Source: Escherichia phage vB_EcoM_JNE01
DNA: 64,000 nt
Reading direction: 5' to 3' (one strand)
Sequence record: OR670491
The notes beneath the pieces are model-generated. The model saw nothing but the letters and a program-made list of their open reading frames with translations, ran no database searches and had not been told where the DNA came from. Of the stretch, positions 24,211-40,514 are shown piece by piece; the stretch's first letter is position 1, and the number at the start of each line of letters is the position of its first letter. Made by a program: the position numbers and the translations under genes.

Positions 24211-24217
24211 AAAGTAC

Positions 24218-25580: not shown

Positions 25581-25640
25581 TTGCAAACTAAGTTTAAAAG
25601 CGTATAATACTTTATATCGAGGCGGGGAGTGGTTCCCCGC
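25581..25640 (+). promoter_or_regulatory. early-type promoter plus 5' stem-loop GCGGGGA-GTGG-TTCCCCGC
   Basis: TTGCAA 25581-25586, TATAAT 25603-25608. Confidence 0.55.
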
Positions 25641-25658
25641 TCAAACGAGGATTTAAAA

Positions 25659-25898: not shown

Positions 25899-25955
25899 TA
25901 TTCAGTACTGAGATAATGGCGGGTAATAGTTCCCGCCTTTACTGAGGGTTATCTA

Positions 25956-26216
25956 ATGAGTAAAGTAATTAGCTATACAGCACTAAGCAAGACATTATCT
26001 ATTAGCCAGTGCACCGATGGTTATTGGCTATTTGATGAAACGCGTGGCATGAATTTAGCGATGCGTGCAAAAACTGCTGAGGCGGCGTATATTCAAGCAC
26101 TGGAATACTACCAGGAACGTTTAAAGGAAGTAGAAGAAGATTATAAAAGCCTCAAAGCGAAAGTAGATCATTTCGTCGGTCAATTCAACGAGGAAGACGA
26201 CGACAAACAATATTGA
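25956..26216 (+). CDS. hypothetical small protein
   Basis: 86-aa ORF preceded by hairpin GGCGGGTAATAGTTCCCGCC. Confidence 0.55.
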   Translation: MSKVISYTALSKTLSISQCTDGYWLFDETRGMNLAMRAKTAEAAYIQALEYYQERLKEVEEDYKSLKAKVDHFVGQFNEEDDDKQY

Positions 26217-26224
26217 AAAAGTAC

Positions 26225-26283
26225 TTGCAATTAGTTTTCAGTACTGTATAATGGTTTACATCAAAGGGAGAAATGGTTCTCCC
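26225..26283 (+). promoter_or_regulatory. early-type promoter plus 5' stem-loop GGGAGAA-ATGG-TTCTCCC
   Basis: TTGCAA 26225-26230, TATAAT 26247-26252. Confidence 0.55.
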
Positions 26284-26302
26284 TGGTAATGAGGAAAATA
26301 AA

Positions 26303-26524
26303 ATGGCTAATATCACTACTCTTTCCCAACTGGAAGCACTGGTGAAATCTATGCGGGAACATGCCGACAAAATCGGCGTACAAGATCCAGCCGTTTGCTT
26401 CTGCGACGAATTGAATGATGATACCCTGGTAATAGCAGAAGTCCAGGACGTTTCTAACTATTCCTCGCGTTACACTGGCGGCGTAGCAAATAAAGGCGAC
26501 TTCTGTTTATACCTTACAAAATAA
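26303..26524 (+). CDS. hypothetical small protein
   Basis: start moved to MANITTLSQ with SD GAGGAAA. Confidence 0.6.
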   Translation: MANITTLSQLEALVKSMREHADKIGVQDPAVCFCDELNDDTLVIAEVQDVSNYSSRYTGGVANKGDFCLYLTK

Positions 26525-26529
26525 CAACG

Positions 26530-26559
26530 CGGGGAGATAATAACTCCCCGTTACTTTTT
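26530..26559 (+). terminator. rho-independent terminator
   Basis: CGGGGAG-loop-CTCCCCG hairpin plus T-run. Confidence 0.6.
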
Positions 26560-26767
26560 CAGTACTGAATCATTTAATAGACGGATCTCGGCACCCGGTG
26601 GGTTAGTGACTGTTTCGTCTTGATGTAGTAATTATGCCAGTACTGGATGCACTTGTCAACAACTATTTTTCAAATACTTTTTATTAAAATACTTGCAATT
26701 AGTTTTTAAACGCGTATAATGTTTTGCATAGGGGGAGCGGTTCCCCTGGTAACTAAGGAATAATAAA

Positions 26768-27004
26768 ATGCTTGAACAAATCAAATCAACGTCTGCGAAT
26801 GTAACGGGAACGGTATCACACTTTACTAGTGATGAATCGCGTGGTGTTCCTTATTGTGCTGTACATGTAAACACTGATGGCAACTACTGGTTTACGGTTT
26901 ACGGATCATATTCATTTGGACGGCCAGGGCATCAAAAAATTCTGGATAAAGTACAACCAACGGGTAAAAATATCACTGCCGAAATGTTTTATAAAAAATC
27001 ATAA
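26768..27004 (+). CDS. hypothetical small protein
   Basis: 78-aa ORF with promoter, hairpin and SD upstream. Confidence 0.6.
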   Translation: MLEQIKSTSANVTGTVSHFTSDESRGVPYCAVHVNTDGNYWFTVYGSYSFGRPGHQKILDKVQPTGKNITAEMFYKKS

Positions 27005-27009
27005 AGTAC

Positions 27010-27068
27010 TTGCAATTAGTTTTTAGTACTGTATAATATTTTACATCGCAAGGGGAAACGGTTTCCCC
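27010..27068 (+). promoter_or_regulatory. early-type promoter plus 5' stem-loop GGGGAAA-CGG-TTTCCCC
   Basis: TTGCAA 27010-27015, TATAAT 27032-27037. Confidence 0.55.
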
Positions 27069-27088
27069 TGGTAACTAAGGATAATCAA

Positions 27089-27388
27089 ATGAAAGTTGCA
27101 ATCATCGCCCTGGCTTTATCTGTATCGTCTTTCGCTGTTAACGCTTCCGTTGATGTACCGCGTGAAAAATTCATTCAGTGCACTGTTGCAATGACTAACG
27201 AGGAAACGGCTGAGATTGTTACCAAATCCCTGGAACTGGCCCCTGCAATGTTTGCTAATGGCCCGTACCATGAAGAAGATGATCAGGGTAGCACGACCAT
27301 CTATTACGATGCAAAAAGTAAACGCGGTTCAGTTACTGTAATGGATACTGAGAAAGTTACATTCACGGGAGTAATTAATTGTTTTTAA
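27089..27388 (+). CDS. small secreted/periplasmic protein (Sec signal peptide)
   Basis: MKVAIIALALSVSSFAVNA/SVD: hydrophobic N-region with AxA cleavage motif. Confidence 0.65.
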   Translation: MKVAIIALALSVSSFAVNASVDVPREKFIQCTVAMTNEETAEIVTKSLELAPAMFANGPYHEEDDQGSTTIYYDAKSKRGSVTVMDTEKVTFTGVINCF

Positions 27389-27404
27389 TGAAGTACTGAA
27401 TCAT

Positions 27405-27434
27405 AAGCCCACTATAAGAAGTGGGCTTTTTTTA
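27405..27434 (+). terminator. rho-independent terminator
   Basis: AAGCCCACT-loop-AGTGGGCTT plus T-run. Confidence 0.65.
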
Positions 27435-27518
27435 TTGTAGTACTGAATACTTTAAAAATAGTTTTGAAATAGTAGTTGACATTACCAGGGAAAGGCGTAG
27501 AATGTATTACATCAGGAC

Positions 27519-27600
27519 GGGGAACACTAAGTAGACCGCCAGTAAGTCGAACGAAAAACTGGACACGACCTGGAAACTTTGATAAACTAACTTACACTTT
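27519..27600 (+). ncRNA. candidate structured 5' leader (diverged copy of the 80-nt element)
   Basis: begins CATCAGGACGGGGAAC like copies at 24813 and 35214. Confidence 0.25.
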
Positions 27601-27618
27601 AATTGAGGAATTAAAAAA

Positions 27619-28098
27619 ATGGCAAATGTAAAATCATTCTTTAAAGCACTGGTATCTTCTGACGTATCTATCGCCGCTGAATTGCTGGCTGACCTGGATA
27701 ATGATACCATGAAAGCAGTACGCAATAATTTTAATATGGCGTACAGTGCAGCAAAAGAACTGCAAGCCAAAAAGGTAGCAGAACTGGAAGCGGCAAAGGC
27801 AGAACGTGAAGCAGAACTGCAAGCAACAATCGAAAGCATCCAGGCGGCGGTAAGTGGATTGGATATCGAGATCGTAACCGATATGGCACATAAAGCCCTA
27901 GCTGCAAAATACGGTGAAGTAAAAGCGGTTAAAGAAAAGAAATGGATTCAGGACCGCGTTAACGTAGTACTTGACAACGGGGAAGAATATCTTATTCCTG
28001 TACGCGGTAACTGCATTGCCGTAGTACTGGACGCGATTAACTCCAGTGGTATGACACGCGAGGAATGGATCGAAGCTCATCGCAAAGTTGAAGCATAA
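27619..28098 (+). CDS. hypothetical protein with central coiled-coil-like segment
   Basis: 159 aa; AKKVAELEAAKAEREAELQATIESIQAAV. Confidence 0.65.
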   Translation: MANVKSFFKALVSSDVSIAAELLADLDNDTMKAVRNNFNMAYSAAKELQAKKVAELEAAKAEREAELQATIESIQAAVSGLDIEIVTDMAHKALAAKYGEVKAVKEKKWIQDRVNVVLDNGEEYLIPVRGNCIAVVLDAINSSGMTREEWIEAHRKVEA

Positions 28099-28119
28099 CA
28101 ATAAAAGTACTGAATCACT

Positions 28120-28147
28120 AGCCCACCTTAAACGGTGGGCTTTTTTG
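28120..28147 (+). terminator. rho-independent terminator
   Basis: AGCCCACC-TTAAAC-GGTGGGCT plus T-run. Confidence 0.65.
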
Positions 28148-28373
28148 TGTTTATCGTTTACCAGGCCACCAGCACCGCCTAGAAACGATTCTAACGCATT
28201 AAACTGATTATCTGATGCATTGCCCTAGCTGGTGGCGTTAAGGCTGTAAGAACGCGATTGAGAGCGTTTAAAGTATTTTGCAAAAAGTAATAAAAAGTAC
28301 TTGCACGATTAAGAGATTAGCGTATAATTAATTACATCAAGGCAAGACACCTTAACTAACTGAGGATATAAAG

Positions 28374-28526
28374 ATGAATACTTATGACCTGGATTGTTTT
28401 ACTTTACAAGTAATGTCAGTATGCAGTAAGAAAGATTGGTCATCAAAGGAATTTAAAGCAGTTATCGCGTGTGCAAAACACGGCAAGACTATCAATGAAA
28501 CGGCATCAATCATTGATAAACTTTAA
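28374..28526 (+). CDS. hypothetical small protein (50 aa, not in ORF track)
   Basis: hand-translated; promoter and SD GAGGA upstream. Confidence 0.45.
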   Translation: MNTYDLDCFTLQVMSVCSKKDWSSKEFKAVIACAKHGKTINETASIIDKL

Positions 28527-28595
28527 AAAATAGTTTGACAATAGTTTTAAGTACTGGCATAATACATACATCAACTACTGAATAGGAATTAAAAA

Positions 28596-28823
28596 ATGGC
28601 TATTATCATTACTCGCGTATCTGGTACTACTGGCAACGAACAAGTAGTTGCAGTCATTACCAACAAGGAAGGTGCGGAATTGCAAAATGCAATGAATACC
28701 TGGGCCGTTAATGAGTTCGGTCAGTGGGCAAGTGTAGCATACATTGAAACCTATCAAGTGCCGTCGATTAGTTTAACTGATTTGGGCGTTGAGCGTATCC
28801 TTTGCCTGGATGAATTAAATTAA
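28596..28823 (+). CDS. hypothetical small protein
   Basis: 75-aa ORF with promoter and SD. Confidence 0.6.
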   Translation: MAIIITRVSGTTGNEQVVAVITNKEGAELQNAMNTWAVNEFGQWASVAYIETYQVPSISLTDLGVERILCLDELN

Positions 28824-28908
28824 AAAAGTACTTGCAAAGTAAATCGAATAAAGTATAATACATTACATCAAGGGGAGAAATGGTTCTCCCCACTACAAGG
28901 AAACTAAA

Positions 28909-29052
28909 ATGAAAACTTGTCAATGTGGTCATAAATCTATTACGGGTTTTAAGCGGGGCGTTGCTCTTTGCCAGTACCATTATAATTTACAAGTATGGGG
29001 TAAAGAATGGGCCGACCAGGTGGAAGCAGCAAAGAAAGCAAAAAGTAAGTAA
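28909..29052 (+). CDS. hypothetical small protein (47 aa, not in ORF track)
   Basis: hand-translated MKTCQCGHKS...; promoter, hairpin and SD upstream. Confidence 0.45.
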   Translation: MKTCQCGHKSITGFKRGVALCQYHYNLQVWGKEWADQVEAAKKAKSK

Positions 29053-29140
29053 AATATTATCACAGTACTATTGACATAGTTTGATAGTACTGGCATAATA
29101 GATTTTATCAAGACAACATATTAATTTAAGGAATACAAAA

Positions 29141-29464
29141 ATGGCTAAAACTATCATTAACACCGTTTCCCTGGCTGCAATCCGTGCAATCAATGTTGAC
29201 GGTAAACGTTGGACTGATACATATGGCAATACTTATCATTCTTGTCATGTAAGCGTTGAACTGGATAACGGTTTGAATGATCTGGCGGTTGAATCATTTA
29301 CTTATGGCTATGAAGATGCATATCAACAAACGGCGTTAGATCTATTAAAGGAATCAGTAGACGGGCTTAATACTGATGAAACCTCCCTTACTCGTTTGTG
29401 CAATGATCTTAATATCCCGTTGCATTGTACTGTACAGAATGTTAAACGCAAAAAAGATCTTTAA
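29141..29464 (+). CDS. hypothetical protein (paralog of 35990..36313)
   Basis: shared RWTD..GNTYHSC.VS and C-terminal KRKKD. Confidence 0.6.
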   Translation: MAKTIINTVSLAAIRAINVDGKRWTDTYGNTYHSCHVSVELDNGLNDLAVESFTYGYEDAYQQTALDLLKESVDGLNTDETSLTRLCNDLNIPLHCTVQNVKRKKDL

Positions 29465-29544
29465 TTAGCTTTACTTTATGCAGATACTTTGATATAGTGT
29501 CTGCATAGGGGAAAGAAATTAAATTAACTTAAGAGGATCGTATA

Positions 29545-29814
29545 ATGAAAAATATCAGTACTTTAATCGATACAGGTACTCATGTTCGTCGGTCTATGGT
29601 TGCAACCAGTACTACAAAACAAGTACCAAGCGGTTATCTTGTATTTGTGCACGATGGTAAACTCCTGGAACGTTCAATCAATTTTGATGTTAAAAACAAT
29701 TGCCGTTTTATTATCTTTAAGCGTGAGCAATATAAAATTGATTTACCAGCAAAGCCCATAAGCGGGGCGTACAACGTGCAATCATTGTTTGAACGTCAAC
29801 CATACACCTATTAA
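29545..29814 (+). CDS. hypothetical small protein
   Basis: 89-aa ORF, SD GAGGA. Confidence 0.55.
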   Translation: MKNISTLIDTGTHVRRSMVATSTTKQVPSGYLVFVHDGKLLERSINFDVKNNCRFIIFKREQYKIDLPAKPISGAYNVQSLFERQPYTY

Positions 29815-29865
29815 TCAAAACATCGTTAGCGGTCGATTTAGGCCGCGTATATTGGGGATTATACC

Positions 29866-30138
29866 ATGAACGTTAATCAAGTACTGAATGAGATCGAAAG
29901 CATCATTAAACCAATGAAACGCATTGATGCTATGTTAACACCGGAAGAATGCCGCCTTTATGAGCGTTACAGCGTCGAACAAGTCCAGGCAATGGCTATG
30001 GCTACCCCAGCCGTTAAACCGCCTGAGAATGCGTTACAGGACGTTACAGGGGATTATATCATCAATCCAGTACTAGGGAAGATGGCTGCAATCACCGAAG
30101 ATCAACAAGATTACTTAAGTCAGTACTTAAAAGGTTAA
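29866..30138 (+). CDS. hypothetical small protein
   Basis: 90-aa ORF. Confidence 0.55.
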   Translation: MNVNQVLNEIESIIKPMKRIDAMLTPEECRLYERYSVEQVQAMAMATPAVKPPENALQDVTGDYIINPVLGKMAAITEDQQDYLSQYLKG

Positions 30139-30143
30139 TTAAT

Positions 30144-30353
30144 ATGCTTACTGTACAGGATAAGATCGACATCTTAAAGGTTAATATGTATGTGATTGAT
30201 GCAGTACCTGGTAAAGTATTTGCATACGATGACAGTACTGTAAGCGATTTCTACTATAGCCAGGACGTGGGGGATCTTTCTGTACAGTCGGTTATTGAAA
30301 ACGTAGTTAATGCAGCGTATGAGCATTTACTTTCAAATAGTACTTGCAATTAG
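30144..30353 (+). CDS. hypothetical small protein
   Basis: 69-aa ORF; 3' end runs into next promoter. Confidence 0.5.
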   Translation: MLTVQDKIDILKVNMYVIDAVPGKVFAYDDSTVSDFYYSQDVGDLSVQSVIENVVNAAYEHLLSNSTCN

Positions 30354-30422
30354 TTTTTAAACGCGTATAATGTTTTACATGAAGGGGAGAAATGATTCTC
30401 CCCACTAATTAAGGAATATGAA

Positions 30423-30569
30423 ATGAAAGCATCAAAAAAGAGTAATACTAAGAAAGCACGTTCAACCTTAGATGGGGTATTCCCTTTACGTTTCGTTGAT
30501 GAAGTGGTGTCCTACCCGCCGGGCCTTACTCCTGAGATGGTAGAAAGTTTGCGTAAATCTAAAAAATAG
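30423..30569 (+). CDS. hypothetical small basic protein (48 aa, not in ORF track)
   Basis: hand-translated; promoter, hairpin and SD upstream. Confidence 0.45.
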   Translation: MKASKKSNTKKARSTLDGVFPLRFVDEVVSYPPGLTPEMVESLRKSKK

Positions 30570-30650
30570 TACTTGCAATTAGTTTTTAGTACTGTATAAT
30601 AGTTTACATGAAGGGGAGAAATGATTCTCCCCAATAACAGGAGAATCAAA

Positions 30651-30803
30651 ATGAAACAATACAACGCTCGGTTTGATGTTACTATCGGTAACGGCAAAGG
30701 TCAATTCTCTTTCAGTACTCGCAAAAGTTATACAGAAAACTTCCTGCGTAATTGTGCACTGACCGCCGCTCAAATTAAACATTACTTTCAGGCTAAAAAA
30801 TGA
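30651..30803 (+). CDS. hypothetical small protein
   Basis: start moved to MKQYNARF downstream of promoter hairpin; SD AGGAGAA. Confidence 0.5.
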   Translation: MKQYNARFDVTIGNGKGQFSFSTRKSYTENFLRNCALTAAQIKHYFQAKK

Positions 30804-30889
30804 AAACATTAGCTTACTATAGTTCGGCCCTGGTCGGTGCATTGATCGCGGCGTTGTTAGTAACCTATCTATTCTTTATGGTGATTTAA
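30800..30889 (+). CDS. candidate 29-aa single-TM peptide
   Basis: ATGA overlap with previous gene; hydrophobic MKTLAYYSSALVGALIAALLVTYLFFMVI. Confidence 0.3.
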   Translation: MKTLAYYSSALVGALIAALLVTYLFFMVI

Positions 30890-31033
30890 ATGAATCCAAC
30901 AGGTTTAAACTATAAAAGTTGTTCGGCGTTTACGAAAGCAAATAAAGCGAATGCACGTAAAGCGAAAGTACAAGAATACATCAAGCAAGGCATGACGCGA
31001 AAGGCGGCGATTCTAAAAGCTAAAAATAAATGA
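30890..31033 (+). CDS. candidate 47-aa basic protein
   Basis: TAA-ATG abutting start; hand-translated. Confidence 0.3.
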   Translation: MNPTGLNYKSCSAFTKANKANARKAKVQEYIKQGMTRKAAILKAKNK

Positions 31034-31113
31034 AAAAAGTGGTTGACTCCGGTCAGCCATTTTGCTATTATATATTCATTGAGAGATAGCTCACTAGCCC
31101 ACAGGGTGCATAA
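31033..31113 (+). promoter_or_regulatory. terminator/promoter hairpin plus conserved element AGCCCACAGGGTGCATAAGTGTATCTAT
   Basis: TTGACT inside inverted repeat, TATTAT -10, then conserved element. Confidence 0.45.
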
Positions 31114-31254
31114 GTGTATCTATTATATGAGTATTGAGTACTGAAAACTATTTTAAAAGTATTTGTAGAAAGTACTTGCAAACTATCTCAATAAGCGTAT
31201 AATGTTTTACATCGAAAGGGGAAACGGTTTCCCCTGATAATAAGGAAACAAATC

Positions 31255-31596
31255 ATGACTATCTCAATTGCTCAATCTAACTTTGAAAACGAAATCATCG
31301 CCCAGGCACTGCGTTTAAATGATGGTCGGGCCGAAATTAATTACGGTTTCAATTCAGGCGGTTGTGAAAAATATCAGTACTTTGTAACGGCTGATGGCGG
31401 TGTCCTGGGTATCAATACAGTTATTGTAAACATCCAAAAAATTAATTTCAATGATCCAGACGATAGCCAGTTTTACATCACTGGCGTAGACGTGAACTAT
31501 GAGGATGACTCACTAACTGATGATCACACTGGTGAGAAGTTAGAGAGTGCATACGGTGAAGATGATTATCAGTCAGTACCGGAAGATTTTGAATAA
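31255..31596 (+). CDS. hypothetical acidic protein
   Basis: 113-aa ORF; second promoter, hairpin and SD upstream. Confidence 0.6.
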   Translation: MTISIAQSNFENEIIAQALRLNDGRAEINYGFNSGGCEKYQYFVTADGGVLGINTVIVNIQKINFNDPDDSQFYITGVDVNYEDDSLTDDHTGEKLESAYGEDDYQSVPEDFE

Positions 31597-31693
31597 TATT
31601 AAAAAAATAGTTTGACAATAGATTATAGTACTGTATAATAGTTTACATCAAGGGGAGAAAAACTTCTCCCCACTAACAGAGAGAGAAAACAAA

Positions 31694-31906
31694 ATGGCTA
31701 ATATCTGCACTGTACTGAAAAATGCAAAACAAGTTTTATTTTCTGATCACGATCATTTAAACAAGGATATTACTGGCGTTCGGAATATCAAAGATGTAAA
31801 AAGTGTTATGGGTATCTATTGCAATATGAAACGTGTTGGAACGTTCGGCGACAAAGTACTATACCAGGCAGGGGATTACAATTTTACACTGACTATCATT
31901 AACTAA
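31694..31906 (+). CDS. hypothetical small protein
   Basis: 70-aa ORF with promoter, hairpin and SD. Confidence 0.6.
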   Translation: MANICTVLKNAKQVLFSDHDHLNKDITGVRNIKDVKSVMGIYCNMKRVGTFGDKVLYQAGDYNFTLTIIN

Positions 31907-31998
31907 AAATATATTACCAGTACTATTAAATCTATTGACAACGTTTGATAGTACTGACATAATAACTTTTATCAACTACACTACTAAGGAATTAAAAA

Positions 31999-32178
31999 AT
32001 GGCTATCATCGCAAAAACTGAAATCGTTGGTCTGGATTCTATCATCATGACGTTTGAAGATCAAAAAGGTATGTATGTAGTTTCATATGGTGATTATGTT
32101 CGGGAGTATGAAACGGTAGACGAAGCCTTTGAAAGTTATATTCGCCAGGTGAATAAAGCATACGACGACTACCGCTAA
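31999..32178 (+). CDS. hypothetical small protein (59 aa, not in ORF track)
   Basis: hand-translated MAIIAKTEIVG...; promoter and SD AAGGAA. Confidence 0.45.
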   Translation: MAIIAKTEIVGLDSIIMTFEDQKGMYVVSYGDYVREYETVDEAFESYIRQVNKAYDDYR

Positions 32179-32268
32179 AATATATTACCAGTGCTATTGA
32201 CAAAGTTTGATAGTACTGTATAATAAGTTTTATAAACAGTAGTTAACTTAACCTAAGAGAGAAATAAA

Positions 32269-32412
32269 ATGATCGCACTGGATTCATTCATCGACGCAGT
32301 ACTGGCAAAAACTGGCGAGGATCTGACCGCAGAACAATACGCGATGATCGAGCAATGTCAGCAAAACGGTAAATCGGTGAAAGATACTGTTAAGATTATC
32401 CGCAAGATGTAA
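32269..32412 (+). CDS. hypothetical small protein (47 aa, not in ORF track)
   Basis: hand-translated; promoter TTGACA...TATAAT and SD upstream; terminator downstream. Confidence 0.45.
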   Translation: MIALDSFIDAVLAKTGEDLTAEQYAMIEQCQQNGKSVKDTVKIIRKM

Positions 32413-32418
32413 GATTAT

Positions 32419-32447
32419 AGCCCACTGGTTAACGCTGGTGGGCTTTA
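32419..32447 (+). terminator. terminator hairpin containing a Chi octamer
   Basis: AGCCCAC-loop-GTGGGCT; loop/stem contains GCTGGTGG. Confidence 0.5.
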
Positions 32448-32517
32448 ATCCTTTACCCTATACAATGCCAGTACTCAACCGTTTATCTCGTTAGAATGCG
32501 TTACAGGACGTTTGACA

Positions 32518-32715
32518 ATGATTAGCATGAAATCAGTACAAAAACAAATAGAAACATTATCAAAAATTAAACGTAAACAGTACTCGTTAGAATATACAAT
32601 CAATGGTAACTATCATCTAATGAAAGAGAATAATTTTATCGTCATTGATGAATCATTGCAAGTTATTAGTATAGTACTGAAAGCATTAATCAATGACAGA
32701 AAAAAATTAAAATAA
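32518..32715 (+). CDS. hypothetical small protein
   Basis: ORF; weak SD; start uncertain. Confidence 0.35.
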   Translation: MISMKSVQKQIETLSKIKRKQYSLEYTINGNYHLMKENNFIVIDESLQVISIVLKALINDRKKLK

Positions 32716-32804
32716 TCTATTGACAATATCCTCCAGTACTGGCATAATACTTACATCAAGACGAGAACGTCGCTAACCCATAGGGTGCACAAATGTAACT
32801 ATAT

Positions 32805-32895
32805 AATATCGATCAATAAATGATCAAAAAAGTACTGGATCAATTTAGCATAAGGCGTATAATTCTGATCAATTCTTGATCAAAGGCAATATACG
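32805..32895 (+). promoter_or_regulatory. GATC-rich palindromic cluster (five GATC sites, TGATCAA repeats)
   Basis: ATCGATCAATAAATGATCAA...GGATCAAT...TGATCAATTCTTGATCAA, upstream of the TraR-like gene. Confidence 0.35.
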
Positions 32896-33044
32896 CAGTT
32901 GAATTTATATAGACAGTACAAAGGCGTTACTATCCGTGGTAATGCTGGTGGATATGTAGTATCATATGGTTTGAATAAGATAAACACTAGTAGTATTATT
33001 GTAGCATTACAGTACTATAGTATTTTTATAATGAGGTTAAAATA

Positions 33045-33302
33045 ATGGCAGTAGGATACGCGAAAGACGGGGCCGAACAAGACGAGATTCACGCAGTGAT
33101 TCAGGCCGCCGTTAACCACGCTAGAAAGCAAATTAACGCACAAAGAGAATCACTGGTACATTGCCTCGACTGCGGCGATAAAATCCCTGAGAATCGACGC
33201 CAGGCCGTTATAGGGTGCATGTATTGTATTACTTGCCAGGAGGATCATGATAGTACTTTTAAAAGAGATCCGCGTAATTGTTGGCATAGATCTATGAGAT
33301 AA
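33045..33302 (+). CDS. TraR/DksA-family C4 zinc-finger protein
   Basis: CLDCGDKIPENRRQAVIGCMYCITCQ matches the CxxCGxxIPExRR...CxxCQ signature. Confidence 0.7.
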   Translation: MAVGYAKDGAEQDEIHAVIQAAVNHARKQINAQRESLVHCLDCGDKIPENRRQAVIGCMYCITCQEDHDSTFKRDPRNCWHRSMR

Positions 33303-33365
33303 AAAGTATTGACAGTACTGAAAGATAGTGTATAATGTTTTATATCTTAACTGAGGATAGTAATC

Positions 33366-33722
33366 ATGGGAATACAACATATCACGCGTACTACTGACAA
33401 TGGCGAGATCACTGGTTATCAGGTACAGGGCAAAGTAGCACAATTGCAGTACTGGTTTGTTAAACGTGGAATCATTGCACCGGATCTTGATTATGACCGT
33501 GTAGCGTTTATTGATTCTCTTTATGTTGATCCTGATAGTCGGGGCAATGGTGAAGGTAACGAATTAATGAATGCCTTTATTGATGCCGCCGATGATTCAG
33601 ATTGTATCATCTTAGAATGCGATACGGGAGAAGATAACGCCTTTAATCTTAAAGAATGGTACGAAGGTTTCGGATTCGAGGTACTGATCGATAGTGAATA
33701 TCCTATCATGATTTTATCATAG
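33366..33722 (+). CDS. possible GNAT-like acetyltransferase domain protein
   Basis: VAFIDSLYV...RGNGEGNELMNAF resembles the R-x-x-G-x-G CoA-binding motif; weak. Confidence 0.4.
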   Translation: MGIQHITRTTDNGEITGYQVQGKVAQLQYWFVKRGIIAPDLDYDRVAFIDSLYVDPDSRGNGEGNELMNAFIDAADDSDCIILECDTGEDNAFNLKEWYEGFGFEVLIDSEYPIMILS

Positions 33723-33800
33723 TACTTGCATTTAGTTTTCAGTACTGTTATAGTACTTGCATCAAGGGGAAACATCTTCCCCTACTAAGAGGAAATAAAA

Positions 33801-33989
33801 ATGGAAAACTTATCAAGTATTTTAGTACAAGATGATTTCGGTAATCCTGGAAGTGCTATCATTGTTCGGGGCAATAAAGCAACGTTTGTTATTGCTGGTG
33901 GACCCGTACAGCGTAGCATTAAAAATAATGCTGTTACCATTAATAATGTACGCTATCGCTTAGATAAAGAATTAATTCATAAACTGTAA
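33801..33989 (+). CDS. hypothetical small protein
   Basis: 62-aa ORF with promoter, hairpin and SD. Confidence 0.55.
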   Translation: MENLSSILVQDDFGNPGSAIIVRGNKATFVIAGGPVQRSIKNNAVTINNVRYRLDKELIHKL

Positions 33990-34016
33990 TATTAATTTAA
34001 TAGAGGATAACAATAA

Positions 34017-34340
34017 ATGTACATTCATACTACTATCACAAAGGAAGTCCGTTGCCAGTTCGAAAGTATTCCGGGCGTATGTTTCATCACTGGTACGTTT
34101 TCCCCTGGTGATCGTGATAATCCAGTACTGTTACAATTACGCCATCCATCATGGGATAAAGCATTTGATCTACCGTTGAATGAATTCGCAACTACTGCTG
34201 AAAAGTACATTAAAAATATTCGCGAGAATGATCGACTATTCATTAATGCTTTTAGTGATGCCGCGTTAAGTGAGATCCATGCTGTATTGGTTGCAATCAT
34301 GGAATCAATGGAGAAAACTATATTCAAACAAGGTGAATAA
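34017..34340 (+). CDS. hypothetical protein
   Basis: 107-aa ORF, SD GAGGA. Confidence 0.55.
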   Translation: MYIHTTITKEVRCQFESIPGVCFITGTFSPGDRDNPVLLQLRHPSWDKAFDLPLNEFATTAEKYIKNIRENDRLFINAFSDAALSEIHAVLVAIMESMEKTIFKQGE

Positions 34341-34423
34341 AAACTATTGACAATGCAATCCAGTACTGTATAATAGTTTACATGAAGGAGAGAAATGATT
34401 CTCCCCACTAAGAGGAAAGAAAA

Positions 34424-34636
34424 ATGCAAGGTCAACTAATCGTTCGTAAATGGTCTGATACTAACGAAAAACCGTGGGATGTACAATACATCGCCCCAAA
34501 TGGTGAATCCAGATATCAACCAGGTGTAACGCATAGTACTGAGCAATTCGCCGCCGCTCATCGCGAACGTCTGTTACAATCAATGCAGCAAGGTTCCGGT
34601 GAAAAATTCATTCAGGATCATTGGCTGAAAGATTAA
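34424..34636 (+). CDS. hypothetical small protein
   Basis: 70-aa ORF with promoter, hairpin and SD. Confidence 0.6.
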   Translation: MQGQLIVRKWSDTNEKPWDVQYIAPNGESRYQPGVTHSTEQFAAAHRERLLQSMQQGSGEKFIQDHWLKD

Positions 34637-34722
34637 AAAGTACTTGCACAGTACTGAATAAAGTGTATAATGTTTTATATCGGAAGGGGAATAGTTCCCC
34701 TCCGAACAAAGAGGAAAGTATA

Positions 34723-34896
34723 ATGGTCCAGGTAGAATTAACAGTACTGAAAGATCTGTTTTATCGGATTGGTACTACTGGCGAATATCCGAAGGGTGAT
34801 AATGCAAAACTTTACGTATCACTCGACTTATGGCAACGCGAACAATTAGCAACGGCCTGGCGTAAAGGCAAAGCAGATAGCGAGGTGAAAGCATGA
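34723..34896 (+). CDS. hypothetical small protein
   Basis: start moved to MVQVELTVLK downstream of promoter hairpin; SD AGAGGAAA. Confidence 0.5.
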   Translation: MVQVELTVLKDLFYRIGTTGEYPKGDNAKLYVSLDLWQREQLATAWRKGKADSEVKA

Positions 34897-35042
34897 AAGA
34901 ATTCTTATTTGAAGTAGTGTTTCAAGGTGTCGGTAATAACCAACTGATTCGATCAAGTGGTTATAATGTTAACCAGGCATGGAATAACATTAAACAAATG
35001 TACCCGAACGCTATCACATATCGCAACCCGAAAGAAGTTTAA
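34893..35042 (+). CDS. hypothetical small protein (49 aa, not in ORF track)
   Basis: ATGA overlap; hand-translated. Confidence 0.4.
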   Translation: MKEFLFEVVFQGVGNNQLIRSSGYNVNQAWNNIKQMYPNAITYRNPKEV

Positions 35043-35060
35043 AAATAATTGAAAAAGGGA

Positions 35061-35136
35061 TTGACTCCGGTCAGTCCCTTTGTTATTATATACGCATAGA
35101 AACAAATTAGCCCACCGGGTGCATAAATGTATCTAT
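35061..35136 (+). promoter_or_regulatory. terminator/promoter hairpin GGGATTGACTCCGGTCAGTCCC plus conserved element AGCCCACCGGGTGCATAAATGTATCTAT
   Basis: near-identical copies at 38336 and 41086. Confidence 0.45.
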
Positions 35137-35213
35137 TGTTTGCTGGTGGCTAGTACTGAAAACTATTTTTAAAAAGTACTTGCATTGTACTTAGAATCAA
35201 GTATAATGTTTTA

Positions 35214-35295
35214 CATCAGGACGGGGAACGAAATAAGTAACCCCGTTAAGTAGTCCAGGAGTAAGACATACGAAAAACTCCCCTGATAAAATAGT
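35214..35295 (+). ncRNA. candidate structured leader / small RNA (about 80 nt)
   Basis: second copy of the 24813-24895 element; differences preserve hairpin pairing. Confidence 0.3.
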
Positions 35296-35356
35296 TTGAC
35301 AATAGAAAGTAAACGAGTATAATACTTACATCAACCACTGATAAGGAAACATAAAA

Positions 35357-35632
35357 ATGCGGATTCTACTGACAGCTAACGAAATCGAACAAGTACTGAC
35401 TACTAATCTGGAACAATGGAAACGTGAAGCAGATATCCAGGCGGTTCAATGCCTTAACGATAAGTTAACGCCAGATGACTTAAGCACGATTGTTGATCCA
35501 CAATTTTATGAAGATATTCACGACACGTCTTTAAGCGTCGAGGATGTACTTGATAAGCACTACATTGATACTGATTTACATGTTTACGGTCGTAAAAACT
35601 TTATCACTATTCACGACATTTACAATACTTAA
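35357..35632 (+). CDS. hypothetical protein
   Basis: 91-aa ORF with third promoter and SD. Confidence 0.6.
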   Translation: MRILLTANEIEQVLTTNLEQWKREADIQAVQCLNDKLTPDDLSTIVDPQFYEDIHDTSLSVEDVLDKHYIDTDLHVYGRKNFITIHDIYNT

Positions 35633-35718
35633 GTATTGACAAAGTATCTTAGTACTGTATAATAGTTTACATCAAGGGGGGGAATGGTTCCCCTCCTAAC
35701 TAAAAGAGAGAAATAAAA

Positions 35719-35901
35719 ATGGCTAAGTGCACTATCTGTAATAAAGAAATAGTATTAGTTCCAAGTGCCCGTGAACGTGCCGCTCGGTTCGGTGGCAAAG
35801 CGTCAGACTATACAAAAATGTTTACTACCCATACAGCTTGCCAGGTAGCAAAACGTTCACAAGAAAGCGTAGAATTAATGCGTAAACTTTCCAAAAAATA
35901 A
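35719..35901 (+). CDS. hypothetical small protein
   Basis: 60-aa ORF with promoter, hairpin and SD. Confidence 0.55.
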   Translation: MAKCTICNKEIVLVPSARERAARFGGKASDYTKMFTTHTACQVAKRSQESVELMRKLSKK

Positions 35902-35989
35902 GTATTGACAAAGTATCTTAGTACTGTATAATAGTTTACATCAAGGGGGGGGGAATGGTTCCCCTCCTAACAAAGAGAGAGAAATAAAA

Positions 35990-36313
35990 ATGGCTATGAT
36001 CCTTACCCAGAAAGTAGAACTGAAAATTGTAACCTCCTTTGACATTAAAGTTAATCGGTGGACTGATAGCCACGGCAATACTTACCACTCCTGCTACGTG
36101 TCCGCATTGATTGGTGATCGCTGGGAAGACCTGGGACACGAAACCTTTACATACGGTTACGGCACACAAGGCGAGTACACGGGTTTAGAAATCATTAAGG
36201 AAACTGTAATAGGTTTCAACCCGAAAGAGAAAGTACTACACAGAATTGAGAAAGAGATCAACAAAGAAATTACAGTTCGCTACTACGATGTAAAACGTAA
36301 GAAAGACATGTAA
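35990..36313 (+). CDS. hypothetical protein (paralog of 29141..29464)
   Basis: shared RWTD.HGNTYHSCYVS and C-terminal KRKKDM. Confidence 0.6.
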   Translation: MAMILTQKVELKIVTSFDIKVNRWTDSHGNTYHSCYVSALIGDRWEDLGHETFTYGYGTQGEYTGLEIIKETVIGFNPKEKVLHRIEKEINKEITVRYYDVKRKKDM

Positions 36314-36325
36314 TAGAATCCATTT

Positions 36326-36364
36326 AAAGTACTATTTGACATTGCCCAGATAGTACTTTATAAT
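36326..36364 (+). promoter_or_regulatory. dyad AAAGTACTAT-N-ATAGTACTTT enclosing TTGACA, abutting TATAAT (operator-like)
   Basis: TTGACA 36337-36342, TATAAT 36359-36364; dyad arms on both sides of -35. Confidence 0.45.
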
Positions 36365-36412
36365 AGACTCTAACTTGTAGTACTAATTAACTTAACTAAT
36401 AGGATGTACACC

Positions 36413-36808
36413 ATGATTACTAAATTCTTCGCTACCCGTGAACAAGCTCGCATCGTTGCCCGTGAGGAAGGTGAAACATTTAAAGACATGGGTAAAGATT
36501 CTCCTACTGGTAAACGCTGGGCGGTACAGTTCAAAGAGATCTCTGATATTGTGAATTCACCTGAGCCTGTACTTACAGCAGCAGAACTAAAGCAAGCTCA
36601 AGAACTGGCTGAAGTACTGAACGCTCAAGATGACTTCTTGAAAGGTTCTGATATTGAAGTTACAGTTAACGCAAATGCATGGACTCACGCGGATCACCTG
36701 GCAAACCTTAAGCGTCCAAGTGAACTGATTCGTAACCAGAAAGAGATCCGTCATGACCGTAAAGGAAACCGTGTTACCGTATACAGTAAACGCCGCCAGG
36801 TTATCTAA
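36413..36808 (+). CDS. hypothetical protein (paralog of 23944..24210 with insertion)
   Basis: FATREQARIVAREEGETFKDMG...HDRKGNRVTVYSKRR. Confidence 0.6.
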   Translation: MITKFFATREQARIVAREEGETFKDMGKDSPTGKRWAVQFKEISDIVNSPEPVLTAAELKQAQELAEVLNAQDDFLKGSDIEVTVNANAWTHADHLANLKRPSELIRNQKEIRHDRKGNRVTVYSKRRQVI

Positions 36809-36831
36809 TACCTTGCAGTACTAACCAACAC

Positions 36832-36859
36832 GGCGGGAAGACAGTTCCCGCCTTTTTTA
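36832..36859 (+). terminator. rho-independent terminator
   Basis: GGCGGGAA-GACAG-TTCCCGCC plus TTTTTT. Confidence 0.65.
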
Positions 36860-36872
36860 TAGGACAAACAAA

Positions 36873-37127
36873 ATGATTAAGGTTCAACTATATAAAGATA
36901 ACATCTTACGGGTACACTATAAAGCACCTCAGAGAATCATCACAAAGGCCGTACAGCTTGCTAATGAGTTTATTAATGGTAACCTATTACCTAGGAAGTT
37001 AAGCAACGGGAAACTGCGTGTAATCGACGTGGACACTAACAACAGGATAGTAATCGAGAACACAGGAAAGATAAACCTTTATGAGCATCAACAATACAAT
37101 AAGAAAATAAAACTAATATCACGTTGA
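36873..37127 (+). CDS. hypothetical small protein
   Basis: 84-aa ORF. Confidence 0.55.
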   Translation: MIKVQLYKDNILRVHYKAPQRIITKAVQLANEFINGNLLPRKLSNGKLRVIDVDTNNRIVIENTGKINLYEHQQYNKKIKLISR

Positions 37128-37180
37128 CAGTACTCAATTGTTTTAGTACTATGTACACATACCAACACGGGAGAAACAAA

Positions 37181-37399
37181 ATGAAATTATCTAAAATCGA
37201 AAAGAAAACTATTGATGAAGCAGTTAAGCACGGTTATACCTTTCGTAATGATTCACATTTTACCAATTTTCAACAAGGGTATCGTACTATTAAAAAACTA
37301 ATTGACAAAGGTTTATTAGTTGAAGTCAATAACGGTAACGGTATCGAGTATCAACCAACACAGGACGCATTTTATTTTAAGAAATATAATATTATCTAA
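37181..37399 (+). CDS. hypothetical small protein
   Basis: start moved to MKLSKIEKK; promoter TTGACA...TACTAT and SD GGGAGAAA. Confidence 0.55.
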   Translation: MKLSKIEKKTIDEAVKHGYTFRNDSHFTNFQQGYRTIKKLIDKGLLVEVNNGNGIEYQPTQDAFYFKKYNII

Positions 37400-37457
37400 T
37401 TGACAGTACTCAAATGTTTTAGTACTATATGTACATACCAACACGGGGGGAAACAAA

Positions 37458-37700
37458 ATGATTACTTTAGAAAAACGTATCAAAGAAACTACATCGCTGG
37501 TGGAACTGTTAACAGTACTCAAATGTAAAACAGCACCATTCAGCACGCCGGACTTTATTAATATGGTTGATGTTAATGGTCGCTATCGTATCACGGTCGA
37601 ACAAGGAGCGGCGAAAGTATTCAGTACTAAAAACACGAAGGAAGTGATCCACGCCGTTAATGTTAAAAAAGTAGTTGCCATTGATAGTAAAGTACTGTAA
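37458..37700 (+). CDS. hypothetical small protein
   Basis: 80-aa ORF; promoter nearly identical to that of 37181. Confidence 0.55.
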   Translation: MITLEKRIKETTSLVELLTVLKCKTAPFSTPDFINMVDVNGRYRITVEQGAAKVFSTKNTKEVIHAVNVKKVVAIDSKVL

Positions 37701-37731
37701 TATAGTTTCATTAACTCAAGGAGATCATGCA

Positions 37732-38316
37732 ATGCGTAATTATACAAAATTCATCCGTACACTGTCAGAAATGGAAACCAACAAAGAGATCCTTTCAGCT
37801 TGTCGGTTAGCTGACCTGGAGATCATCGGTGCTGGTTCTTCCCGTATAGTTTTCGCTTTAAATGATCGGTTAGTGATTAAGGTCGCGAATTGTGATGCGG
37901 GTGTAGAACAAAATGAAACTGAATGTAAGGTATGGAATTTTTTAGACTATGACCGCCCTCAGTTGAAACAGTACTTTGCAAAGGTGCATATGCATTTATG
38001 CGATCCTGATAATATGTTTATCGTTATGGATCGGTTGAGTACTGCAAGCAAAGGCAGTGTGAAGCACGTAAACGCGTGCAATGAATTAAAGTACAATATT
38101 AAACGTAATGCAATCGAACGCCAGCACCGCTTTGCTGATGCACTACAACACGTTGATGATACATTATCAACACTAACGATAAGAGATATCAGAAAACAGA
38201 ATATCGGCCAGGATCGTAATGGACTTATTAAAGTACTTGATTACGGTTTAACCAGCAATATCTGGAATCAGTACTATAAAAAGCGTGATGTGGCAGCAAG
38301 TAAGGTAACACGATAA
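37732..38316 (+). CDS. protein-kinase-like protein (candidate phage Ser/Thr kinase)
   Basis: start moved to MRNYTKF; Gly-loop IGAGSSRIVF, VIKV lysine, catalytic-loop-like IRDIRKQNIG, DFG-like LDYGLT. Confidence 0.55.
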   Translation: MRNYTKFIRTLSEMETNKEILSACRLADLEIIGAGSSRIVFALNDRLVIKVANCDAGVEQNETECKVWNFLDYDRPQLKQYFAKVHMHLCDPDNMFIVMDRLSTASKGSVKHVNACNELKYNIKRNAIERQHRFADALQHVDDTLSTLTIRDIRKQNIGQDRNGLIKVLDYGLTSNIWNQYYKKRDVAASKVTR

Positions 38317-38335
38317 AAAAGATTAAAAAAAGGGA

Positions 38336-38416
38336 TTGACTCCGGTCAGTCCCTTTGCTATTATATATCCATTGAGAGATAACTCACTGACCCATAGGGT
38401 GCGGAAGTGTATCTAT
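38336..38416 (+). promoter_or_regulatory. terminator/promoter hairpin plus conserved element GACCCATAGGGTGCGGAAGTGTATCTAT
   Basis: copy of the module at 35061 and 41086. Confidence 0.45.
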
Positions 38417-38538
38417 TATATAAGTATTCAGTACTGAAAACTATTTTTAAAAAAGTACTTGCATTGTACTTAGAATCAAGTATAATGTTTTATATCGAGA
38501 GGGGGAAATGGTTCTCCCTGGCAATAAGGAATAAAATC

Positions 38539-38760
38539 ATGACTACAATGACTTGCATTTACGCTTCCAATCGTCTGAATGATGCGGCCTTTAATGTTGA
38601 TTCAGAATATCAATGTTATCGGGATGAAAATAAAAAAGTTTTTGTAGTTGATAATAATGGTTTCCATATTGAATTACAATCCGGCTTCACTGGTGTTGAT
38701 GGTAAATCAGTATGGGGCGTACAGGATGATAAAGGCACATATCATTTTAAACGTAATTAA
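38539..38760 (+). CDS. hypothetical small protein
   Basis: start moved to MTTMTCIYAS downstream of promoter hairpin. Confidence 0.55.
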   Translation: MTTMTCIYASNRLNDAAFNVDSEYQCYRDENKKVFVVDNNGFHIELQSGFTGVDGKSVWGVQDDKGTYHFKRN

Positions 38761-38843
38761 GTATTGACAAAGTATATCAGTACTGTATAATAGTTTACAT
38801 CAAGGGGAGAATAGTTCTCCCCGATACTAAAAGGAATAAAATC

Positions 38844-39248
38844 ATGACTACTACTAATCTTGCTCGGAATATCGCCAACGATAAAAATCATGCTGCAATG
38901 GTTGTTGGTTACATTGAAGCTATGCAATTCAGTACTGTACACAATGAGAACGGCGATTACCTGGAAGATTATGAATTATCAGAGCAAGCCCATCAAGCGG
39001 CAGTGATTGCATGTTCTCGCTTCATTGAGAAACACGGTAATGATCTGGAAGTAGTTCGCGGTATGTTTATTGATTACGGTTATGAGCAAGCTGGTCATGA
39101 TCTGTTCCTTACCCGCGAAGGTCACGGAACTGGTTTTTGGGATCGTGGTTTAGGTCACTATGGCGATGTATTCACGAAGTACTGCGAAGAAATCAACGTT
39201 TGCGATCCCTATGTAGGCGATGATAATCTAATCTATATGGGCGAATAA
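38844..39248 (+). CDS. hypothetical protein
   Basis: 134-aa ORF with promoter, hairpin and SD. Confidence 0.65.
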   Translation: MTTTNLARNIANDKNHAAMVVGYIEAMQFSTVHNENGDYLEDYELSEQAHQAAVIACSRFIEKHGNDLEVVRGMFIDYGYEQAGHDLFLTREGHGTGFWDRGLGHYGDVFTKYCEEINVCDPYVGDDNLIYMGE

Positions 39249-39335
39249 AAGTATTTGACAAAGTATATCAGTACTGTATAATAGTTTACATCAAGGGGAG
39301 AATAGTTCTCCCCGATACTAAAAGGAAACAAAATT

Positions 39336-39608
39336 ATGTCCAGCTACTCCGCTACTATGATCATTAAAGATATGAACGGTAATCCTACTTCTGCTGGTGG
39401 ATCATTTGGAAACATTAATTTAGATGGTCGGTTATCCATGCAATCAGCAATCGATGCAGCGAAAGAAGTTTTTAAGAATGAATGTACTGTTAGTAAGCTG
39501 GATTATATGGGATTTGCTATCGAAAAAACTAATCGTTTTGTGGACTACAAAAAACCACTGATGATTGATACTAACCTGAAAGCAAACGAAGTGGAGTACT
39601 TATTATGA
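39336..39608 (+). CDS. hypothetical small protein
   Basis: 90-aa ORF; promoter identical to that of 38844. Confidence 0.6.
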   Translation: MSSYSATMIIKDMNGNPTSAGGSFGNINLDGRLSMQSAIDAAKEVFKNECTVSKLDYMGFAIEKTNRFVDYKKPLMIDTNLKANEVEYLL

Positions 39609-39796
39609 CAGTTGAAGAAGTTAAAAAAGTACTGGCAGTACTACGCTATCATAATCATTGTAAGGTGAAGAATGATCCTGATTATCTTGATTCATCCCTG
39701 GAAGAGGATACACTACAAGCAATAAGCCATATGCAAACATTAGCAAAGCGTATGACCGAAAAGAATAGACCGGACTATATCGGAAATAAAATTTAA
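39605..39796 (+). CDS. hypothetical small protein
   Basis: ATGA overlap with previous gene. Confidence 0.55.
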   Translation: MTVEEVKKVLAVLRYHNHCKVKNDPDYLDSSLEEDTLQAISHMQTLAKRMTEKNRPDYIGNKI

Positions 39797-39882
39797 AAAG
39801 TACTTGCATTGTAGTTAGATTAACGTATAATGTTTTACATAGAGCGGGGGAATAGTTCTCCCGCCAGTCCAGGAGATACACC

Positions 39883-40146
39883 ATGAACACTATCGAAATC
39901 ACTATCAATGCACACGTATACGACAACGTAATCATGCAAACTACTATGACCGCTAATGATACCAGTACTTTGCGGAATACTGTTATTAGTGCTGTATGTG
40001 CCGCTATCGGTGATGTCGCCCTGGAAAATGCAAAACACGTAAACGATGGTTTCACTATGTGCAAACGTGATAACGCAAAACATATCATCGTGGAAGGTTA
40101 CGGCGGTGTAGAATTTAATGTTTATATGAAAAAAGTACTTGCATAA
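39883..40146 (+). CDS. hypothetical small protein
   Basis: 87-aa ORF with promoter, hairpin and SD. Confidence 0.6.
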   Translation: MNTIEITINAHVYDNVIMQTTMTANDTSTLRNTVISAVCAAIGDVALENAKHVNDGFTMCKRDNAKHIIVEGYGGVEFNVYMKKVLA

Positions 40147-40213
40147 TAACTAAAACAAAGTATAATGTTTTGCATAGGGGGAGATATCCTCCCCCACTAA
40201 AAGGAGTAATAAA

Positions 40214-40438
40214 ATGGCTAACTTTGATGAACTGATGCGGGAAGTAGCTAACCTGGCAGAAGAGAAGAAATCATTCGATTCTATCTATAACACCGCTCAC
40301 CGTGATTCAGTACTGGCATGTAACCAGGATCAAAAAGATGAACTAATCGCCACCTATCATGAAGCATGGAAGTACTACCGACAATGGGAGAAAGAAGAAA
40401 GTGAGTCTACCATTGACGGCCTCAATAATCTAATCTAA
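40214..40438 (+). CDS. hypothetical small acidic protein
   Basis: 74-aa ORF with promoter, hairpin and SD. Confidence 0.6.
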   Translation: MANFDELMREVANLAEEKKSFDSIYNTAHRDSVLACNQDQKDELIATYHEAWKYYRQWEKEESESTIDGLNNLI

Positions 40439-40514
40439 AAGTTTTATTTCAGTACTATTGACATAGCTTGATAGTACTGATGTAATAACTTTACTAACTA
40501 CAAGGGGAAACATA

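Follow-up and report, generated by a model that had tools for sequence, protein, structure and literature searches.

The 64,000-nucleotide stretch of DNA analysed here (the window) belongs to an Asteriusvirus, an E. coli jumbo phage of the PBECO4/121Q/fEgEco12-like type, and shows nucleotide identities of up to 99.2% to WPEC3, Ecwhy_1, and fEgEco12. Among its many small genes is one of 85 codons (Table 1), for which both the ORF listing and the raw sequence give ATG as the start codon. The initial annotation, which was made from the sequence alone, had read this ORF as carrying the C4 finger signature of the TraR/DksA family, and this held: the string it quoted, CLDCGDKIPENRRQAVIGCMYCITCQ, exactly matches residues 40 to 65, and Pfam zf-dskA_traR (PF01258) matched residues 39 to 68 with 36.9 bits, above the gathering cutoff of 24.9 (E=3.7e-9). 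The four zinc ligands form a CxxC-x17-CxxC motif that is invariant in 47/47 homologues, as is the embedded I47-P48-E49-x-R51-R52. The ligands of TraR (C37, C40, C58, and C61) have identical spacing, and TraR carries the equivalent I44-P45-E46-A47-R48-R49. An additional cysteine, C58, has a counterpart in lambda Orf73. In a six-frame search, this was the sole CxxC...CxxC motif across the 64-kb window, and the ORF was also the single match to the family profile there, with no paralogues. Since the Pfam score exceeds the gathering cutoff and the motif is both single in the window and conserved, it is not a chance occurrence. Conservation extends from Met1 to the stop codon in 47 protein clusters, and the ORF was thus confirmed as a real gene.

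Table 1. Features of the zinc-finger gene, its product, and its leader, in window coordinates
Feature	Position	Strand	Remarks
CDS, TraR/DksA-superfamily C4 zinc-finger protein, YbiI subtype, 85 aa	33045..33302 (including stop)	+	ORF list, profiles, model, hhalign
Shine-Dalgarno GAGG, 8 nt before ATG	33033..33036	+	Part of 45 nt that hardly vary among relatives
N-terminal cap MAVGY, codons 1-5	33045..33059	+	YbiI-subtype MAxG[FWY]; missing from TraR and lambda Orf73
Acidic tip of N-terminal helix, DGAEQDE, codons 8-14	33066..33086	+	D8/E11 register set against lambda Orf73
C4 zinc finger, codons 40-64	33162..33236	+	C40, C43, C61, C64; includes I47-P48-E49-x-R51-R52
C-terminal tail FKRDPRNCWHRSMR, codons 72-85	33258..33299	+	Invariant in the lytic-phage clade
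Nearest strong upstream promoter-like site, TTGACA-17-CATAAT with TG extension	32720..32748	+	Conserved in relatives
Cluster of five GATC sites, all GATCAA, within 71 nt	32811..32881	.	Includes the perfect palindrome TGATCAAttcTTGATCA
48-codon upstream ORF, TTG start (GTG in PBECO4)	32899..33045	+	Stop overlaps the zinc-finger ATG (TAATG)

Comparisons at the level of profiles and structures pointed to the same family. PHROG 54 ('DksA-like zinc-finger protein') matched at 8e-19, and a sequence search of the PDB returned E. coli YbiI (2kgo) as the best match (2.4e-11), followed by TraR from RNAP complexes (5e-6). By hhalign, residues 21 to 71 aligned with residues 18 to 68 of TraR at 98.6% probability, and residues 29 to 73 with residues 24 to 68 of lambda Orf73 at 98.1%. 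An AlphaFold2 model computed with 47 homologues as input was of moderate confidence (mean pLDDT, 71) and comprised a helix at residues 6 to 28, the zinc ribbon, a short helix at residues 62 to 68, and an undefined tail (pLDDT, 51 to 64). At this moderate confidence it has the fold expected of the family, a long helix joined to a zinc-ribbon globular domain. Its top Foldseek matches, to be read with the same moderate confidence, were 2kgo (YbiI), 6n57_M, 5w1s_M, 6ptg, and 7khi_M; the TM scores against RNAP-bound TraR (6n57_M) were 0.45/0.52, and DksA-type proteins were also among the top matches. PF01258, PHROG 54, the PDB search, the fold search, and hhalign all agree on the TraR/DksA assignment, and the contrary outcome, placement in an unrelated zinc-ribbon family, failed to appear in the profile search against the TraR/DksA family.

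Within the superfamily, the best NCBIfam model was the YbiI equivalog NF008243 (78.6 bits; cutoff, 96), followed by the TraR subfamily TIGR02419 (49.1 bits; cutoff, 59.7). The F-TraR equivalog NF010268 (31.6 bits; cutoff, 108) and the DksA model NF033459 (14.2 bits; cutoff, 105) scored far lower. These results support a member of the TraR/DksA C4 superfamily that is nearest to YbiI and lies under both curated equivalog cutoffs; it belongs to the YbiI subtype and is not a TraR in the strict sense. DksA has the same Pfam zinc-finger domain and in principle the same target, the RNAP secondary channel. In contrast to the 85-aa protein and its single modelled N-terminal helix, however, DksA is a 151-aa protein that has a two-helix coiled coil with DxxDxA at the tip and needs ppGpp.

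The family assignment as such is already known, since public records annotate the gene accordingly: Ecwhy_1 carries a 100% identical protein labelled 'C-4 type zinc finger protein', and near-identical proteins appear as 'TraR/DksA C4-type zinc finger protein' or 'DksA-like zinc-finger protein'. Altogether, 532 phage records match the protein. Homologues of 60 to 72% identity occur in many T4-like Straboviridae, including JS98 (orf95), Moon, and phages of Klebsiella, Citrobacter, and Edwardsiella. The literature searched contained no discussion of the gene in jumbo phages and no characterised YbiI-subtype member or homologue from a strictly lytic phage; on YbiI, PA4870, and DksA-like proteins of jumbo phages, it yielded only a remark, given as 'data not shown', that overexpressed YbiI rescues ΔdksA auxotrophy (PMC2613031). 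Blankschien et al. considered YbiI more likely to be tied to iron metabolism.

That the ORF is decaying or functionless is extremely improbable. Some Mosigviruses retain only a deletion chimera with its last 28 codons, and the first annotation of PBECO4 left the gene out; against this, the gene, which has a good RBS, is intact in 36 phage-clade clusters and in >140 phage records with identities of ≥60%, and its Cys, RR, cap, and tail residues are invariant across the clade. Its deletion in some Mosigviruses does show that it is dispensable there, and the corresponding locus of most Mosigviruses is occupied by an unrelated 68-aa gene (L010, 701-907, in the comparison made here). The chimera, gp103 of Mosigvirus RPN187 (L003, 2453-2617), is a 54-aa protein composed of the first ~27 codons of the 68-aa gene and the last 28 zinc-finger codons, so some T4-like lineages have lost the zinc-finger gene. 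Together with phrog_25948, gp103, which matches the last 28 residues only, had suggested that the tail is an independent module; this was rejected, as gp103 is a deletion fusion. The original PBECO4 annotation (L004, 1557-1814) calls only the 48-codon upstream ORF. In CMSTMSU, the zinc-finger gene is frameshifted, probably by sequencing errors, since this record is flagged UNVERIFIED.

The protein departs from TraR at its N terminus. Its first residues, M-A-V-G-Y-A-K-D-G-A, fit the YbiI cap MAxG[FWY]AxDxA. This cap occurs in 74 of the 150 best representatives; of the 47 close homologues, the large majority carry it, among them all 11 from bacteria. Few parts of the YbiI subtype are as well conserved as MAxG[FWY]. 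The tip has no strict DxxDxA motif (M-A-V-G-Y-A-K-D8-G-A-E11-Q-D13-E14), where the position of Ala is taken by D or L. When the hhalign alignment to lambda Orf73 was extended gap-free, D8 paired with D3 and E11 with D6, all lying 32 and 29 residues, respectively, ahead of the first Cys. This distance varies in validated homologues: in TraR and VP882 Orf61 it is 34 and 31, which puts the acidic pair of TraR in another register, where no DxxDxA is found here. Seven residues precede D8, versus two ahead of D3 in TraR and lambda Orf73, i.e., the protein has five extra N-terminal residues. Its N-terminal helix is as long as that of TraR (residues 6 to 28 in the model versus 2 to 27), and residue 2 of TraR sits 4.3 Å from Mg2+.

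These proportions bear on a different role for the protein, that of a plug or competitor in the secondary channel, in which either the cap would reach into the catalytic centre and block it (Gfh1-like) or the protein as such would exclude DksA and GreA/GreB (Rnk-like). A helix of TraR length with a strongly conserved extra cap would favour such a function, given that residue 2 of TraR already comes so close to Mg2+, and Rnk provides a precedent for non-regulatory binding in the channel (PMC9239242). On the other hand, Asteriusviruses encode a sigma factor and no RNA polymerase of their own (PMC11895373) and therefore use the host core enzyme throughout infection, so a general plug would harm the phage unless tightly controlled. 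Moreover, the reported rescue of ΔdksA by YbiI, which has the same cap, argues for DksA-like regulation and against blockage. We thus regard a plug or competitor as unlikely.

Two positions of the acidic tip distinguish the phage proteins from their bacterial relatives. Position 11 is Glu in 35/36 phage-clade proteins and Val in 11/11 close bacterial YbiI-like proteins (Val also in 66/74 of the cap-bearing representatives); at position 14, the phage proteins likewise have Glu, where the bacterial ones have Gln. Judged from this distribution, E11 is a gain specific to the phage clade.

The C terminus also differs. The protein has 21 residues past the last Cys, compared to 12 in TraR; in the model, the short helix at residues 62 to 68 leads into a low-confidence tail, and CQEDHDSTFK aligns with CQEDLELISK of lambda Orf73. 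Bacterial YbiI ends in GYNRRGSKDSQLR, which in the phage clade is replaced by a basic tail of 12 to 14 residues, FKRxPRNCWHRSMR. PRNCWHRSMR is invariant in 36/36 phage-clade proteins, and the YbiI-type ...NRRGSKDSQLR tail is missing from them. In an exhaustive search of 1.84 billion representatives, the full phage-type tail occurred in only one other 50% cluster. A tail that looks intermediate, NRKVWHRSMR, was found in P0057, where Val stands in place of C79. Four matches to residues 61 to 82 in P0193, a repetitive 231-aa protein unrelated to the family, were dismissed as spurious. A second metal site formed by H25, H68, C79, and H81 was also considered; this idea is weakened because H68 occurs in only 21/36 clade members and C79 is replaced in P0057.

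Taken as a whole, the protein resembles YbiI (2kgo; NF008243/PRK11019) in its cap, its helix length, its C4 finger with IPxxRR, its basic tail ending in Arg, and its size (85 versus 88 aa). It differs by an identity of ~37%, by Glu11/Glu14 in place of Val/Gln, by a linker that is one residue longer, by the tail, and by H25 and Y60, both specific to the phage clade. In addition, the gene is phage-borne, whereas that of YbiI lies in the iron-regulated fiu-ybiX locus. Alternatively, the protein might perform whatever YbiI does in the cell, possibly without RNAP (e.g., in metal or iron stress), its likeness to TraR reflecting no more than a shared zinc-ribbon scaffold. The best profile and structure matches are indeed to YbiI, cap and basic tail are hallmarks of the YbiI subtype missing from TraR, and some C4 proteins annotated as TraR/DksA have no DksA-like activity. 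However, conservation extends to R51/R52 and to an acidic i/i+3 pair at the tip of the helix, no metal-related genes are found among the phage neighbours of the gene, and the phage clade has exchanged the YbiI tail and gained E11 and E14, making the tip more TraR-like. A YbiI-like role of this kind is accordingly improbable in our view.

Compared to F-plasmid TraR (6n57, 5w1s), the protein has the same three-part layout of N-terminal helix, C4 globular domain, and C-terminal segment, and IPENRR corresponds to IPEARR, with R51/R52 in place of R48/R49. It thus possesses the Arg pair of functional TraR homologues and lacks both their DxxDxA motif and scores above the curated TraR cutoffs. With lambda Orf73, a validated TraR homologue, the protein shares the extra Cys (GCxxCxxCQED), the QED after the finger, and the distance of the acidic pair from the first Cys. 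Orf73 is likewise a phage protein, made early in lytic growth from promoters of host RNAP, as is predicted for the gene studied here. Unlike the latter's product, Orf73 is 73 aa long, starts two residues before its motif, has Ala at the third motif position, and bears neither cap nor CWHRSMR tail; its gene resides in the exo-xis region of a temperate phage, not in the terminal repeat of a lytic jumbo phage.

The zinc-finger gene lies inside a direct terminal repeat of ~21 kb, which in the window extends from ~20.7-21.6 kb to ~42.6 kb; the left edge is approximate, as the window diverges locally from fEgEco12. Records deposited with both copies of the repeat gave two matches, and the GC skew turns at 21 to 22 kb. 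The repeat consists of a string of small + strand genes (~21700-41700) with 28 strong sigma-70 promoters on the same strand between 21708 and 40780 (TTGACA/TTGCAA-16/17-TATAAT), 11 of which are perfect 12/12 matches. Most of the small genes have a promoter of their own, after which come a discriminator rich in AT (GTTTTACAT or a similar sequence), a 5' hairpin rich in GC, and an RBS. The underlying cassette begins with AAAAAGTAC-TTGACA/TTGCAA, a 16-nt spacer often ending in AGTACTG, and TATAAT, and continues with the GTTTTACAT discriminator, a hairpin such as GGGGAGAAATGGTTCTCCCC, the RBS, and a small gene. The block resembles the pre-early region of T5-type terminal repeats; a description of these cassettes was not found in the Asteriusvirus literature searched.

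The zinc-finger gene deviates from this scheme by an atypically long leader that has no standard promoter-hairpin-RBS cassette. The nearest strong upstream promoter-like site (Table 1) is likely its promoter, which would give a leader of ~290 nt. Relatives have kept the CCCATAGGGTGCACAAATG box, the five GATCAA sites, and the 48-codon ORF of this leader. Nowhere else in the window are GATC sites packed as densely as in this cluster, which holds 5/17 of the GATCAA; overall, GATC is under-represented (143 observed versus ~211 expected). The cluster surrounds a degenerate promoter-like TGGATC-16-TATAAT, and PBECO4-type relatives keep four to five of its sites; a role as an operator or as a site sensitive to Dam/SeqA is possible. 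A search for an RNA element in the ~290-nt leader revealed no Rfam match, no tRNA, and no compensatory changes, and with a fold z-score of only -2.0 no RNA structure there is convincing.

Some records annotate the 48-codon ORF (phrog_38664), which was not found elsewhere; in each of the 27 Asteriusvirus records that have it, the frame is open over its whole length. The ORF falls into two allele groups with only 60% amino acid identity, in which the changes are mostly conservative; the differences by codon position (11/9/18) support coding weakly. It may be a translationally coupled small gene. A two-gene module shared with T4-like phages was rejected, as MobD.3 of JS98, encoded by a coupled upstream gene, is unrelated to the 48-aa ORF.

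This arrangement recalls VP882, in which the start of a TraR-family gene also overlaps the end of a small upstream gene, and TraR forms a complex with the product of the latter, QisA, that arrests host growth (bioRxiv 10.64898/2026.07.27.740977). By analogy, the zinc-finger protein might work only in complex with the 48-aa product, and the persistence of a frame ending in TAATG in all 27 records despite 60% identity is consistent with this. We nevertheless consider an obligate partner very unlikely. The ORF does not start with ATG, and its SD is weak and distant; the 3' third of the ORF falls on the invariant RBS region, where conservation may have non-coding reasons. The codon-position pattern lends coding little weight, the product has no homology to QisA or MobD.3, and the T4-like homologues of the zinc-finger gene do not have the ORF. 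The upstream ORFs of the two systems are unrelated, and complex formation is known for the VP882 pair.

The ORF, its family and fold class, the conservation of the finger and of the RR pair, the genomic position, and the promoter context were obtained directly from the data. Against this background, the best-supported reading, which we consider moderately probable by analogy with TraR and lambda Orf73, is that the zinc-finger protein is an early-expressed secondary-channel binder which lowers host rRNA and ribosomal-protein transcription without ppGpp and redirects RNAP to phage promoters. In this reading, binding to RNAP, the regulatory direction, and early expression are inferred. Host sigma-70 RNAP would transcribe the gene early, from the promoter-rich terminal-repeat block. 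The N-terminal helix (residues 6 to 28) would then enter the secondary channel of host RNAP, with the zinc-ribbon domain and R51/R52 docking on the beta' rim helices and Si3 and with the acidic tip (D8, E11, and E14) approaching the active site. Following the example of TraR and lambda Orf73, the protein would destabilise, independently of ppGpp, the open complexes that form at host promoters for rRNA and ribosomal proteins. The RNAP freed in this way could serve phage promoters, which their AT-rich discriminators should leave insensitive. Promoters with unstable open complexes are marked by GC-rich discriminators, not by AT-rich ones, and the phage early promoters, with their AT-rich discriminators, should therefore escape inhibition. 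Promoters inhibited by TraR have intrinsically unstable open complexes (PMC6970531).

The functional elements of TraR are an N-terminal helix with DxxDxA, the C4 domain, and a C-terminal helix touching the beta lobe/Si1 (Gopalkrishnan et al. 2022, PMC9239242); R48 contacts the rim helices and R49 contacts beta'Si3 (PMC9239242). Binding to RNAP and inhibition of rRNA promoters have been shown for TraR and for five of its homologues, of which four come from known phages and one, X. bovienii Gp34, likely from a prophage (PMC9239242). P2 Orf82 and Gp34 lack the full DxxDxA and retain reduced activity, and some C4 'TraR/DksA' proteins are without DksA-like function (PMC9239242). Several features count against a TraR-like regulator: no strict DxxDxA, five extra N-terminal residues, TraR and YbiI scores below the cutoffs, and a short C-terminal helix. 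The atypical long leader and the deletion of the gene in some Mosigviruses point in the same direction.

Some of these features could instead mean that the lytic-phage clade (Asteriusvirus and several T4-like genera) represents a distinct secondary-channel effector that acts on the catalytic centre, maybe with the 48-aa product as a partner and with GATC-gated expression. The cap would then project past the point reached by the TraR tip, 4.3 Å from the catalytic Mg2+, with D8, E11, and E14 placed on one helix face of the tip. A second contact or metal site could arise from the clade-specific H25 and the invariant basic tail PRNCWHRSMR. We regard a distinct effector of this kind as unlikely.

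As a TraR-like regulator, the zinc-finger protein adds no new principle: ppGpp-independent retuning of RNAP by small phage proteins is established (TraR, lambda Orf73, and VP882 TraR, the latter causing RNAP-dependent growth arrest [bioRxiv 10.64898/2026.07.27.740977]), and the proposed function is the one that textbook knowledge of the family predicts. The YbiI-subtype clade, however, is widespread in jumbo and T4-like enterobacterial phages and has a distinctive cap, tip, and tail; characterising one of its members would also inform the function of E. coli YbiI.

The surroundings of the gene showed further elements of the terminal repeat. Directly downstream, a gene for a 118-aa GNAT acetyltransferase (33366-33722, +) has its own perfect consensus promoter at 33309-33336. 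It is missing from PBECO4 and Salmonella SD phages and is thus a variable accessory gene of the early block. A box, (T)AGCCCAyAGGGTGCAyAArTGTATCTAT, occurs six times (24606, 31091, 32770, 35104, 38384, and 41129), with one copy lying in the leader of the zinc-finger gene. The copies at 31091, 35104, 38384, and 41129 come after a hairpin with a 12-bp stem (AAAGGGATTGACTCCGGTCAGTCCCTTT at three sites and a variant at the remaining one) that contains TTGACT, followed by TATTAT; the box may be a terminator/promoter or operator unit. Near the left end of the terminal repeat, repeat arrays were found at 22119-22270 and 22884-23048. They comprise an array of ~19 8-nt units (CTAAACGG/CTGGATGG) and a 66-nt repeat, with many AGTACTGAATAAT, in 2.5 copies, and could be packaging or replication-related iterons.
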